Positions 24,164 through 28,264 of a DNA stretch of 43,496 bases are shown one piece after another (the first letter of the stretch is position 1; every line of letters starts with the position of its first letter). Location of the stretch: IMG/VR virus record IMGVR_UViG_2718218360_000017; one strand, given 5' to 3'. Position numbers and translations under genes: made by a program. Source of the stretch: a virus. Taxonomy: Duplodnaviria; Heunggongvirae; Uroviricota; Caudoviricetes. Under the pieces are notes generated by a model, which saw only the letters and a program-made list of their open reading frames with translations, ran no database searches and had not been told where the DNA came from.

Positions 24164-26110
24164 TCATGCCGCAGTGTCTGTGCTGTTCACTTCCACCGCA
24201 ATGCTGTCTATCAGTACCGGGTAAGTCGCACCTCTGGTAATGTCTGTCACATGCAGTTTATCCGCCGCAAAGGCACTGACCGGTGACTGCGTCAGCGTGA
24301 ACGGTGTACCATCCTGACCATCAATAACCGGCGTCACCTGAAGGCTGTTATTCCCGGCAAAGCGGAAAGCCAGCGCATGCCATTCGTTATCAAATGCGCC
24401 AAAGCTTCCCAGTTTCAGGTTGTTTGTCGCCACTTTCGCATTGTGGTACATCACATTCAGGTCTTTTGCATCTGTCTGGATGTAGAACGCTGCCAGCAGG
24501 TTATTCCCCCCGTCTCCGGTCAGGGCAACGCCCTGTGGCAGTGAAGATACCGGCCAGTAAAACGCCATAACATACTGGTTCGCAGCCAGCACTCCCGAAA
24601 CCTTAAAGCGGCAGCGAATCTGCCCCCCTTTCTGTAACAGAGCCGCACCGTTGCCCGCGGCGTACTCCAGCACCCAGCTGCTTTTACCGGCTTCCTTGGT
24701 CAGCTTCACTGCCTTACCTCCGGTTCCCTCCGCATCGCTGACCACTTCTGCCCTGCCGCCACTGGCTGACCATCCCTGTACTTTCAGGCTTCCCTCTGAC
24801 TCGCTGGCAAGGTAAGAGAGCAGTGTTGTGACGCCTGTGGCTTCTGCACCGGAAGGCGATGACGGGCGCACCTCTGATACTGTCGATGATGCCCCCGCGT
24901 TTAGCGCCACTCTTCCCGCATGGCGCAAAATCGCCGTTGCCAGACGGTCGGAAATAATCCCACGGCGTGCCCAGGCGCTGAAATGGCTCGCCCTGTCCTG
25001 TGACGTCCAGGTGGCTGAGCTGTCACGCCATTTCGAACCGTAATATCCGATACCCGGAATGTCCGGGTCTTCTTCCGGTTTGTTCGTCGGCACATTCACC
25101 CCGTTCTCATCCGTCATGAACGGTACGAAATGGATATTCTTTTCCGTTTTGTTTTTGTAGCTGCCGTACACCGTCTGGTACGAGGATTCGTTCTTCTGCT
25201 TCCAGAAATACGTCGTGTCCCCGCATATCCAGGGAACACCGTCAGCAGAGCCACCGACGCACTGACCTGCCATATCCGCCAGGTCTGCACGGAATTTATC
25301 AACCTGCGCACCAAACTGTGCTGCGTGATTTGCCGGCGTACCGCCAAAATCAAATTCCCCCTGCATCCACACCACGGCAAACAGCACATTTTTCGGATTC
25401 TTCTTCAGTGCTGCTTTTGTTCGACCGATAAGGTCCTTATACAGCGGCTTGTCCACACCCCAGCGGGTTGAATTCTCCGAGGCACCACTCGCGTCACTGT
25501 ATGTGCCATCAGCTCCGGTGGTGAACGCTGAACCACCACGACAGCACGGAACCAGCAGAATGCCCGCATTCGCCGGTATAAACGGCAGCAGTTTTTTGGC
25601 GATATGCAGCCCCTGCCCCACGGTTCCGTACTGCCCCTTTGACAGGTCCGCTTTCGGATGGTTAAGGCGGCTCATGTCCTGCACATCATGCAGACAATGG
25701 TCCGCCGGAATGATGTCGTTATATTTACAGGCGACACCGCCCGGTGTCACCGTACTGCGACGCGCCAGCTGCTTAATGCGCGGGTCCGGACGGTCATATG
25801 TCTCCGGCAGCGGAAGGCCTTCACCATACGACATGCCGTTTGACTGCCCTGCCAGAACCACAACAAAGTAATACCCGGGGTCGCTGGTGGCGCTGATTAC
25901 TGCACCTTCTCCACCTGTCGGCTTCACCACAACAGGTGTGCTCACATCACCTTCTGCGACAATCGCCTGAATAAGTGCTGCGCCATCATCCGTATACGAA
26001 GAAAACGGCCCACCATATGGTTGCCATCCTTCACGAATTTTTTGCGCAAGTGCATCAGCAAGGTCTGACGGCGACGCCGCCCTGACAACATCATAATGTT
26101 TAAATGTCAT
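24164..26110 (-). CDS. nanS-p: Prophage sialate 9-O-acetylesterase (NanS-p-like, SGNH/SASA family)
   Basis: 648 aa; GQSN catalytic motif (VVLAGQSNGMSYGEG); position between Q and the lysis genes. Confidence 0.8.
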   Translation of the reverse strand: MTFKHYDVVRAASPSDLADALAQKIREGWQPYGGPFSSYTDDGAALIQAIVAEGDVSTPVVVKPTGGEGAVISATSDPGYYFVVVLAGQSNGMSYGEGLPLPETYDRPDPRIKQLARRSTVTPGGVACKYNDIIPADHCLHDVQDMSRLNHPKADLSKGQYGTVGQGLHIAKKLLPFIPANAGILLVPCCRGGSAFTTGADGTYSDASGASENSTRWGVDKPLYKDLIGRTKAALKKNPKNVLFAVVWMQGEFDFGGTPANHAAQFGAQVDKFRADLADMAGQCVGGSADGVPWICGDTTYFWKQKNESSYQTVYGSYKNKTEKNIHFVPFMTDENGVNVPTNKPEEDPDIPGIGYYGSKWRDSSATWTSQDRASHFSAWARRGIISDRLATAILRHAGRVALNAGASSTVSEVRPSSPSGAEATGVTTLLSYLASESEGSLKVQGWSASGGRAEVVSDAEGTGGKAVKLTKEAGKSSWVLEYAAGNGAALLQKGGQIRCRFKVSGVLAANQYVMAFYWPVSSLPQGVALTGDGGNNLLAAFYIQTDAKDLNVMYHNAKVATNNLKLGSFGAFDNEWHALAFRFAGNNSLQVTPVIDGQDGTPFTLTQSPVSAFAADKLHVTDITRGATYPVLIDSIAVEVNSTDTAA

Positions 26111-26589
26111 TATTCCTCCCGGCCGGGATAGTGTATTAAATCAGATATGGAGTGGGCTGTAGTCCGGAAGCCTGAATGACACACGGGGACTACAGCCCAA
26201 GAAATGAAAAAAGGCCACGCAGTTGCGCAGCCTGATAAACCCTGGTTAAAATCCACACGATAACAACACAACAATATCAGTATCTCATGCTATTGCCCGA
26301 ACCCATTCGGGCATTTTTTACCCATAAAAAATGCCCCTCCGGAGAGGGGCATTTTTGCATGCACATTCTTTTTCTTGCATGGTGCCGGGTGCCTCCCGGT
26401 GAATTCAGTATCAGCACCTGAATCCGCGATTACCCCATATACCTGGTTGCTGATTGCCCCTCCGCACAGGGGGATTCACCATGCCAGTTTCTTTTAACAA
26501 ACTCCCCGCAAACCAGACAACAGTCAACCGCCTGAATTGTGAGACATTTAAAAAAAAGGCCCGCAAAAGCGAGCCAGGGAAAATAAGTG

Positions 26590-26665
26590 TGGCGCGTTGT
26601 ACTGGATTCGAACCAGCGACCTGGCGATTATGCGTCGCTCGCTCTCACCACTGAGCTAAAGGGCC
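26590..26665 (-). tRNA. tRNA-like sequence with CAU anticodon (Ile2/Met-like); acceptor stem does not pair by eye, so possibly a pseudogene/remnant
   Basis: Minus strand GGCCCTTTAGCTCAGTGGTGAGAGCGAGCGACGCATAATCGCCAGGTCGCTGGTTCGAATCCAGTACAACGCGCCA: canonical D-arm, CAU anticodon loop and GGTTCGAATCC T-arm, but the 3' strand ACAACGC is not complementary to the 5' GGCCCTT. Confidence 0.5.
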
Positions 26666-26697: not shown

Positions 26698-26728
26698 CCG
26701 AAATAAAAAACCCGCTCAGTGGCGGGTT
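26698..26728 (-). terminator. Intrinsic terminator downstream of the lipoprotein moron; near-copy of tR'
   Basis: Minus strand aacccgccactgagcgggtt followed by ttttttattt. Confidence 0.6.
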
Positions 26729-26805
26729 GCTATCACAGCTATATATTTACTTATTATGCCGTTACTAACATTTATCTTCGGCATATAATCGAAAACAAGG
26801 TTTGC

Positions 26806-27231
26806 TTAAAACTCTGCTTTCATTTTATCCGGGAATTTTTTATTTGCAGCATAATAACTACCAAGTATATAAGCGTTCATTTGCTGCTCTACATCAACCC
26901 GACATGCAGCACTAGAACAAGCACCACTGATAAGCCCAAAAGAACTCCCTTTAGCAGAGAGATCAGCTTTAATTTCCTCTACAGTGTTTTTCCCCATAGC
27001 AACTACACACCCTGTAACAATATATCTAGCCTTCACATCATCCATGCTAAGGATAGTGGTTTTCGCAATTTTGCTGTATCCATCATTTTTATAAACATCC
27101 ATGGCAAACGCACGGCAATCTGTATAATACGGACTTGCTTTAACTTGCGAATACTCAGGTAATTTCATACCTGCACAACCAACTAAACAAAAACCTATCG
27201 CTGCTATTAATACCTTTTTCATTACACTCAT
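26806..27231 (-). CDS. Cys-rich lipoprotein of unknown function (moron)
   Basis: Signal peptide with lipobox MKKVLIAAIGFCLVGC; AT-rich; own promoter-like AT-rich leader; bracketed by two terminators. Confidence 0.7.
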   Translation of the reverse strand: MSVMKKVLIAAIGFCLVGCAGMKLPEYSQVKASPYYTDCRAFAMDVYKNDGYSKIAKTTILSMDDVKARYIVTGCVVAMGKNTVEEIKADLSAKGSSFGLISGACSSAACRVDVEQQMNAYILGSYYAANKKFPDKMKAEF

Positions 27232-27378
27232 AACCTAGAAGCATCATTGAAACTAATTTATTAAATATTCATCGAGTTTCTGGAATACAGACGTTACCCA
27301 TCTCTCCAAAATCTAAAAGATAATAAGAAAAAATGTTTAACGTACCAATCCATTTCATAGTTTCATGAGACATCAGGC

Positions 27379-27406
27379 ACAAAAAAACCCGCTCAGCGGC
27401 GGGTTC
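27379..27406 (-). terminator. tR' late terminator downstream of pR'
   Basis: Minus strand aacccgccgctgagcgggtt followed by tttttttg, about 40 nt downstream of the predicted late promoter. Confidence 0.6.
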
Positions 27407-27450
27407 TTAAATCTTATCAACGGTAGACATACAAAGCCCATCGTTGGGAA

Positions 27451-27479
27451 AATCTTATCCATATTTTTTGAAAAATGCA
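27451..27479 (-). promoter_or_regulatory. Candidate late promoter pR' / qut region
   Basis: -35 TTGCAT, 17-nt spacer, -10 TAAGAT on the minus strand, immediately downstream of Q. Confidence 0.45.
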
Positions 27480-27511
27480 AGCATCATGTCGCCATCTTCG
27501 GCGAAAATCAT

Positions 27512-28264
27512 TTATCTTGTCACTTTTCTCAATTGTGTCTCTGCATATGCTTCTTCCTGCCAGCACTTTGTAACCAGTTTATCAATGATATCTGCATATC
27601 CTTTGTACCACTGATAATCCGTCAGGGCAGGTACCAGCTTCTGGACATGATGCCGCGCCAGTGTGGTTGGTAAACGGCTAAACCGGTTACCATTGCAACG
27701 CCCACAAATCTTATAAACAGGCGTACCATGAAGCCGGGTTCTTTTTTCATCCAGGACAATACCTTTACCCTTACACCCTCTGCACGCTGTGCTGACTTCT
27801 CCCTTACCATGACAATGCTGACATAGTTCCTTCACCCACTCTTCCTTGATAACAGATTCCCCGCTTCTGGAGTGTTTCACCACCTCGCGCAATACATTAT
27901 GAAATCCAGTACCAGCACAATGCTCACAGCGAGCCTTACTTGCCGCAGACCTGGAATAATCAGCAAAGGCAAAATTCACAAGGTAAGGGATGATCTGTAA
28001 CCGGGTTTCTTCACTCAATTTATTCAATGTCGGGTTATCCAGTGCCATCGCGTAATTGAGCAGACCTTCAATCGCAAACTGAGGATCCTGAACACCAACT
28101 TTTGCCAGGAATAAGGCAAAACCCAGTGGTGCTTTCGACTGCACCATCCCCTGCGCAGCAATTACATCCGTAATTGTTAAACCACCAGAGCCTGTCGCCG
28201 GTGCGTCATCACTCAGTTTTGGAGATTTTGGGGAGTAATATTTTGGTAAGGCTTCAAGGTTCAT
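27512..28264 (-). CDS. Q: Late antiterminator Q
   Basis: 250 aa with repeated Cys motifs (CEHCAGTG, CQHCHGKG, CRGCKGKG, CGRCNG); directly upstream of pR'/tR'. Confidence 0.8.
   Translation of the reverse strand: MNLEALPKYYSPKSPKLSDDAPATGSGGLTITDVIAAQGMVQSKAPLGFALFLAKVGVQDPQFAIEGLLNYAMALDNPTLNKLSEETRLQIIPYLVNFAFADYSRSAASKARCEHCAGTGFHNVLREVVKHSRSGESVIKEEWVKELCQHCHGKGEVSTACRGCKGKGIVLDEKRTRLHGTPVYKICGRCNGNRFSRLPTTLARHHVQKLVPALTDYQWYKGYADIIDKLVTKCWQEEAYAETQLRKVTR

Follow-up and report, generated by a model that had tools for sequence, protein, structure and literature searches.

The window analyzed here, a stretch of 43,496 nucleotides (nt) deposited as IMG/VR virus record IMGVR_UViG_2718218360_000017, is a Shiga toxin (Stx)-phage-like prophage that has no stx in the region between the antiterminator gene Q and the lysis genes. 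In this region, an AT-rich gene for a small lipoprotein is placed between two copies of the same terminator hairpin. We regard it as probable, at roughly 0.6, that this gene belongs to a moron, namely, a self-contained accessory cassette in which a leader, a single lipoprotein gene and an intrinsic terminator are combined and which lies directly downstream of the late terminator tR′ of a lambda-type prophage. The unit that is present or absent as a whole is 677 bp in length (26705..27381, minus strand) and corresponds to 653 bp of unique sequence plus one copy of the hairpin, according to an alignment of the window with a Stx2c phage (locus L003) and a viral contig free of the cassette (locus L009). 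The cassette is a typical moron, an ordinary kind of phage accessory gene, and fits the moron concept closely.

Hairpin copies and occupied and empty alleles

That tR′ and another copy of its hairpin bracket the gene, as claimed in the initial annotation, is confirmed by a repeat search: a 24-nt direct repeat, AAAAAACCCGCTCAG[C/T]GGCGGGTT, is found at 27382-27405 (AAAAAACCCGCTCAGCGGCGGGTT) and at 26705-26728 (AAAAAACCCGCTCAGTGGCGGGTT), with 23/24 positions identical (96%) and a start-to-start distance of 677 nt. Read on the minus strand, both copies consist of a G+C-rich stem of 7 bp, a 6-nt loop and a tail of six or seven U. The first copy (27381..27405, minus strand) has the stem AACCCGC/GCGGGTT, the loop CGCTGA and 7 U, and its folding energy is −14.1 kcal/mol (z = −2.5 against shuffled sequences). 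The second copy (26705..26728, minus strand), the putative terminator of the cassette, has the same stem with the loop CACTGA and 6 U, folds with −15.6 kcal/mol (z = −3.6 against shuffles) and is located 77 nt beyond the stop codon of the lipoprotein gene. A terminator scan reports the second copy (26728-26709) and omits the copy at 27405; the tool may extend the stem of the latter into the A/T run and then find too few T residues in the tail.

The first copy is assigned to tR′ because it is the first terminator after the late promoter PR′ behind a gene of the Q-lambda family. The prophage late region is encoded on the minus strand. The product of the Q gene (27512..28264, minus strand; 250 aa) matches Pfam PF03589 (Antiterm, Q-lambda family) with an E-value of 1.5e-51, and among solved structures it is closest to PDB chain 7ubm_Q (Antitermination protein Q; E 2.7e-37), which we take to be phage lambda Q. 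Directly 3′ of the Q stop codon, the minus strand reads TTGCAT-17 nt-TAAGAT-TTTCCC-AACGATGGG, for comparison with TTGACT-17 nt-TAAATT-TGACTC-AACGATGGG in lambda PR′ (NC_001416). Judging from the hexamers, the spacings and the shared 9-nt sequence, 27480-27452 is PR′ (27452..27480, minus strand; −35 TTGCAT at 27480-27475, a 17-nt spacer and −10 TAAGAT at 27457-27452), with a predicted start site at ~27445. The initial transcribed sequence AACGATGGG (27437..27445, minus strand) is identical to that of lambda at all nine positions and lies at the lambda distance of 6 nt from the −10 hexamer. In lambda PR′, this sequence carries a sigma-70-dependent pause element. The hairpin follows ~40 nt past PR′. 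With the Q match, the PR′ hexamers, the 9-nt sequence and the hairpin all in place, the first copy has the sequence features of tR′ of a Q-lambda-type late operon, and read-through by Q is predicted. In the record of phage Ayreon, tR′ is annotated as a terminator and terminators are marked on both sides of the lipoprotein gene, and in the SfV record a terminator is annotated under the matching stretch at the Q end. The predicted PR′-tR′ RNA of ~62 nt folds as two hairpins (−25.2 kcal/mol, z = −4.0), and may be a small RNA comparable to StxS of Stx2a phages.

Comparison of occupied and empty alleles carries most of the argument. In the empty allele of the viral contig L009, the order is PR′ leader-AACCCGCCACTGAGCGGGTTTTTT-GTACCTGTAAACTTGG, continuing into a 75-aa open reading frame (ORF) and a DNA methylase gene. 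In the occupied allele of the Stx2c phage L003, it is PR′ leader-hairpin-GTGCCTGATGTCTCATG...lipoprotein...GTGATAGC-hairpin-GTACCTGTAAACTTGG. The occupied allele has exactly one hairpin copy and 653 bp more than the empty one, and both breakpoints are at hairpin edges; therefore, recombination within or at the terminator hairpin accounts for the gain or loss of the cassette. Such a pattern is predicted by the proposal of the initial annotation that the gene was acquired by recombination at tR′, and it supports the view that the cassette is extra DNA. PR′ is identical between cassette-bearing and cassette-free phages, and the cassette-free relatives L009 and L005 have a single hairpin copy. The segment 26705-27600, from the 3′ end of Q to the second hairpin, is 98-99.8% identical in 15 Stx2c-converting phage records, phiSTEC1575-Stx2k, mEp460 and Ayreon, and homology with these phages stops exactly at 26705, the edge of the second copy. 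SfV and others have only Q, PR′ and tR′ in common with the window, with homology ending at ~27370. In a sample of viral contigs, the hairpin occurs 28 times immediately behind a Q gene of this type, and in only 11 of these cases the lipoprotein gene follows.

Furthermore, 214 of 5426 complete Escherichia coli genomes (3.9%) have the 653-bp cassette at ≥97% identity, always on the chromosome and nearly always as a single copy, and in 213 of the 214 the cassette adjoins a Q of the window's type. The carriers include bovine and human O111:H8 and O157:H7 strains and extraintestinal and avian pathogenic E. coli (ExPEC/APEC) strains, such as IHE3034 and IAI39.

These properties can be set against the definition of morons, which comprises extra DNA, a deviant GC content, an own terminator, an own promoter and expression from the repressed prophage (PMC3594210). 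The extra DNA lies between elements that are adjacent in relatives, as seen in L009 versus L003 and in the 11/28 occurrences. The GC content of the inter-hairpin segment is 0.357, with 0.313 in the leader and 0.378 in the gene (0.275 at third codon positions), versus 0.465 in Q, 0.556 in the downstream esterase gene and 0.52 in the whole window. The terminator is predicted from the hairpin and U-run at 26728-26705.

The hairpin itself, CCCGCC[A/G]CTGAGCGGG followed by a T-run, is a generic phage terminator, as surveyed in IMG/VR loci L009-L128. In 120 sampled viral contigs, its exact 21-mer was counted at least 128 times, and the ORFs upstream of these occurrences fall into 47 different clusters, which include three other Q types and many structural genes; the same loop is found in 10/120 (~8%) of an unbiased sample of phage hairpins of the form AAAAACCCGC-N6-GCGGG. 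Because the hairpin is so generic, the likeness of the two copies argues only modestly for a duplication, and the repeat was rejected as a strong signature by itself. The same abundance is what would be expected if the two hairpins were unrelated copies of a very common terminator, with the cassette brought in by illegitimate recombination or together with flanking DNA and not at tR′. We consider this improbable, since the occupied and empty alleles differ by exactly one hairpin and the insert with both breakpoints at the hairpin edges, and since the same hairpin is the only common sequence at several other module junctions. For example, the PR′ leader is joined at the hairpin with five downstream classes, and the module of the 75-aa ORF and the methylase with three upstream classes. 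The hairpin thus behaves as a recombination joint between phage modules.

The lipoprotein and its family

The gene at 26806..27231 (minus strand) encodes 141 aa, and the description of the initial annotation, an AT-rich gene for a Cys-rich lipoprotein with the lipobox LVGC, holds for this ORF between Q and the lysis genes (26806-27231, GC 0.378). The N-terminus reads MSVMKKVLIAAIGFCLVGC, with AG after the marked boundary, and consists of KK, a hydrophobic run and then L-V-G-C19; the true start may be the ATG at 27222 (MKK...). Residues 1-18 form the signal peptide, whose charged n-region, hydrophobic h-region and lipobox agree with the bacterial-lipoprotein pattern [LVI][ASTVI][GAS]C, so that lipidation at Cys19 is predicted. 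The mature part has 123 residues from Cys19, including four further Cys (C39, C75, C105 and C110), with a computed mass of ~13 kDa and pI of 8.6. Position +2, next to the lipidated Cys, is occupied by Ala20 in the window and by Ala or Ser in the homologues, and is never Asp. By the +2 rule, a non-Asp residue after the Cys leads to Lol-dependent sorting to the outer membrane. Accordingly to this scheme of lipoprotein maturation, the precursor would be processed by Lgt and LspA at Cys19 and, with Ala at +2, would be sorted by Lol to the outer membrane, where a helical domain of ~13 kDa stabilized by two disulfides would face the periplasm. An AlphaFold2 model built on an 8-sequence alignment has six helices and a disordered signal peptide, with a predicted local distance difference test score (pLDDT) of 72 and a predicted template modeling score (pTM) of 0.72.

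Pairwise ratios of nonsynonymous to synonymous substitution (dN/dS) are 0.08-0.18, with synonymous sites near saturation; this is therefore a real gene under strong purifying selection. In the alignment of the eight homologues, 60 columns are invariant, including Gly18-Cys19 of the lipobox and the four further Cys, and a distant member outside the alignment, P0015, has the lipobox LSGC and four further Cys at comparable spacing as judged by eye. One might suppose that the ORF is non-functional, a chance reading frame or a decaying remnant in AT-rich filler, as it has no family annotation or known fold and is a hypothetical protein in all records. Almost no weight is left for this idea: it is effectively refuted by the dN/dS values at saturated synonymous divergence, and the full length is kept from E. 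coli to Buttiauxella, with the lipobox and the four further Cys invariant and a pTM of 0.72 for the model.

Profile and structure searches of the protein, proposed with the initial annotation, were successful in one respect: there is a full-length match to phrog_4748 (E 9e-91), a family of unknown function in PHROGs. As this family has no functional annotation, membership says only that the gene is phage-borne, and the same searches gave no relative in sequence or fold that would be a functional lead. Pfam gave no family at E ≤ 1, NCBIfam only noise (E > 0.1) and PADLOC no match; searches of the PDB by single sequence and by profile yielded nothing meaningful, and structure searches of the PDB and BFVD yielded no similarity clearly beyond the level of generic helical bundles. 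The family is very small, with 9 clusters in a collection of 5.8 billion proteins (word-indexed search) and 8 hits, none annotated, in an exhaustive profile search of 1.84 billion representatives. Where source names are available, all are Enterobacteriaceae (E. coli, Salmonella and Buttiauxella). Every record carrying the gene annotates a hypothetical protein, and a literature search with the RefSeq accession and with combinations of Stx2c, Q21, lipoprotein and moron found no study of it.

Homologues occupy quite different places, and for this reason the gene is a mobile, stand-alone accessory gene. In Salmonella (locus L008), it is located behind an unrelated Q (PF06530/DUF1133) and before a holin gene, is flanked by hairpins and has the same upstream hairpin and a related leader. 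Another homologue is in a prophage early-left region near KilR and RecE, where it adjoins a divergently transcribed gene; another is carried by a 111-kb Buttiauxella plasmid; and yet another is found among transposases, a reverse transcriptase and a resolvase. On plasmid CP110081 of Buttiauxella sp. WJP83 (locus L006), a second small gene for a Cys-rich lipoprotein (5446-5745; 99 aa, lipobox LSGC) follows 10 nt after the homologue, and the pair may be a two-gene unit in that context. Since various mobile elements carry the gene on its own, its product most likely works alone on a component of the host envelope.

Candidate promoter and expression of the cassette

In the leader of the cassette, TTGGTA-17-TATTAT (27320..27348, minus strand) is the only correctly oriented sigma-70-like site, and it is the candidate moron promoter. 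Both hexamers are kept at the homologous place in the Salmonella-type leader (TTGGTA-18-TATCAT), in which much of the surrounding leader has diverged. Furthermore, the upstream neighbour is divergently transcribed in L006 and in locus L007, so the gene needs its own promoter there. From these sequence features, an own promoter of the cassette is plausible. A 37-aa ORF at 27269-27382 (minus strand), which starts with TTG within the tR′ hairpin and is a hypothetical protein in the annotation of phage Ayreon, is probably spurious because it overlaps the terminator and the candidate promoter.

The proposed expression would be as follows. In the lysogen, to judge from lambda biology, constitutive PR′ transcripts of ~62 nt would end at tR′, and the cassette would be transcribed from its own weak sigma-70 promoter TTGGTA-17-TATTAT. 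The second hairpin would then end the cassette transcript before it enters the late and lysis genes farther downstream, or stx2c in the case of Stx2c phages. An insert in the late leader that bears a promoter needs such a terminator, because the esterase, holin and lysozyme genes, and in Stx2c phages stx2c, lie downstream. After induction, Q-modified RNA polymerase would pass both hairpins, and the gene would also be expressed late.

Several points weigh against a self-contained moron. The candidate promoter matches the consensus at just 9/12 positions, and sites of this quality are no more frequent in the region than after shuffling; a search upstream of the L006 and L007 homologues gave no consensus promoter. 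With 213/214 of the E. coli cassettes in the late leader, late-only expression would suffice there. The commonness of the hairpin (~8% of its stem class) makes the identity of the two copies weak evidence when taken alone. The structure model is of only moderate confidence (pLDDT 72, 8 sequences). Lastly, an empty site with the window's own tRNA flank was not found in the complete E. coli genomes by a query with a synthetic Q-hairpin-tRNA junction, which gave no match in one piece; the empty site was found for the Stx2c/mEp460-type downstream flank. The nearest case to an empty site with the window flank is in E. coli UTME-3 (locus L005), whose tR′ has the loop variant CGATGC. In this strain, a ~340-bp unrelated non-coding segment (2800-3170) replaces the lipoprotein cassette between tR′ and the tRNA array, and this filler has its own hairpin, AAAAAAGCCAGCC...GGCTGGC.

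The promoter and the location are also the points on which the strongest alternative depends. According to it, the gene would be a late-operon passenger without its own promoter, transcribed only by Q read-through of tR′ and having a role in lytic growth, such as a lysis accessory function at the envelope or protection of the infected cell, and the second hairpin would be an inherited generic terminator overridden by Q. Such a passenger agrees with the late orientation and the place of the gene, which lies between Q and the lysis genes in all E. coli cases and in Salmonella L008, with the weak promoter match, which is not above chance, and with the missing consensus promoter at the L006 and L007 homologues. 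However, the homologues outside late operons stand beside divergent genes and so are self-expressed there, and the −35 and −10 hexamers are kept in an otherwise diverged leader. In addition, many phages with the same Q and late genes are without the cassette, which is hence dispensable for lytic growth, and a terminator right behind a merely co-transcribed gene would be purposeless. We therefore hold a passenger of the late operon to be rather unlikely, though less so than the other alternatives, and prefer a moron with its own leader and terminator.

Downstream flank, relation to known systems and implications

The cassette is followed by a flank that clarifies its relation to stx. The initial annotation had placed the gene where Stx phages carry stx, and this has to be corrected: in Stx2c phages the cassette coexists with stx2c and is located ~2 kb upstream of it, and the stx slot of the window is elsewhere. 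The Stx2c phage L003 carries, in this order, Q, tR′, lipoprotein, hairpin, 75-aa ORF, DNA methylase, tRNA(CAT), tRNA-Arg, stx2A, stx2B and STnc100, with stx2AB between the tRNAs (3193-3425) and STnc100 (1574-1785) and with the lipoprotein gene at 5102-5527, ~2 kb upstream of stx2c. Because STnc100 is just 3′ of stx2B in L003, the corresponding slot in the window falls at 26514-26589, an empty stretch bordered by a hybrid tRNA and STnc100 and holding only a terminator-like hairpin (26575-26558). The lipoprotein gene of the window is upstream of this tRNA remnant and thus outside the slot.

The hybrid ileZ/argO pseudo-tRNA (26590..26660, minus strand) belongs to the downstream flank, outside the cassette. 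An ileZ-like 5′ part of tRNA(CAT) is fused within the T-arm to an argO-like 3′ end of tRNA-Arg, and, compared with the intact ileZ-argN-argO array of UTME-3, a stretch of ~170 nt comprising argN and the adjoining halves is missing. Position 33 is G, not U, and the acceptor stem is unpaired as judged by eye. In Rfam only model positions 7-64 are matched, PGAP calls tRNA-Met in identical genomes, and ARAGORN finds no tRNA in the window. Next to the slot are STnc100 (26320-26513, minus strand; 144.7 bits) and, abutting it and antisense to the late operon, a full-length AgvB (anti-GcvB) small RNA (26258-26319, plus strand; 96.5 bits). Further downstream, a gene at 24164-26110 (minus strand) encodes an NanS-p-type esterase of 648 aa with DUF1737, sialate O-acetylesterase (SASA) and DUF6645 domains. 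An esterase of this type is usually downstream of stx in Stx phages, and here it is found in a prophage region without stx. Holin and lysozyme genes are also downstream of the cassette.

Among known systems, the closest are the morons of lambdoid phages, such as HK97 gene 15 and lambda bor (Juhala/Hendrix definition; PMC3594210), which the cassette resembles in being extra DNA of deviant composition with a single gene, in having its own terminator and a candidate promoter, and in the envelope targeting predicted for its product. Unlike HK97 gene 15 and lambda bor, it has tR′ as its immediate upstream neighbour and ends with a copy of tR′ as terminator. The lipoprotein is unrelated to Bor, HK97 gp15 or any other characterized moron product. 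A second point of comparison is the conversion cargo between Q and the lysis genes, represented by stx1/stx2 with the ileZ-argN-argO tRNAs, which shares the accessory hot spot and would likewise be expressed by Q read-through from PR′. Porin genes, lc of phage PA-2 and nmpC of DLP12, are also found as cargo there. In contrast to the stx cargo, the lipoprotein cassette occupies a site of its own, which follows tR′ immediately and precedes the tRNAs and stx.

Outer-membrane lipoproteins of phages, such as T5 Llp, Cor (phi80/N15/mEp167) and lambda Bor, block receptors or protect lysogens. Like these, the present protein is a small lipoprotein with a non-Asp +2 residue and is encoded singly by a temperate phage. 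It differs from them in being predicted as all-helical with two putative disulfides, and it has no sequence similarity to them at the level of Pfam (E ≤ 1), which includes a lambda Bor family. Our best guess for its function, albeit a tentative one, is that the product blocks or masks an outer-membrane receptor or an entry route, in superinfection exclusion or a similar protection of the envelope. In a broader and still speculative proposal, which taken as a whole we find possible but doubtful, the protein would be the founder of a new, very narrow family of stand-alone envelope effectors on mobile elements, with a fold not seen before and a selectable envelope phenotype of the lysogen, for example, exclusion of phages or colicins by receptor masking or protection from an envelope-targeting attack. 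Among the lysogens concerned are Stx2c-positive O157, O111:H8 and ExPEC/APEC strains. In a second, likewise speculative proposal, the hairpin CCCGCC[A/G]CTGAGCGGG would be a portable homology "linker" for lambdoid cassette swaps behind tR′.

Nothing in this arrangement is surprising to a phage specialist. The comparison of occupied and empty alleles is a clean, small example of a shared terminator hairpin as a joint for lambdoid mosaic exchange. In the 15 Stx2c-converting phage records that match in full, the cassette is situated between PR′ and stx2c on the route of transcription, and the extra terminator could slightly affect basal transcription of the late genes and stx2c. With carriage in ~4% of complete E. 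coli genomes, its product is a widespread candidate lysogenic-conversion factor, and if it does alter the outer membrane, through phage and colicin receptors or through resistance to serum or lysozyme, this would be relevant to Stx-phage ecology and to phage therapy.

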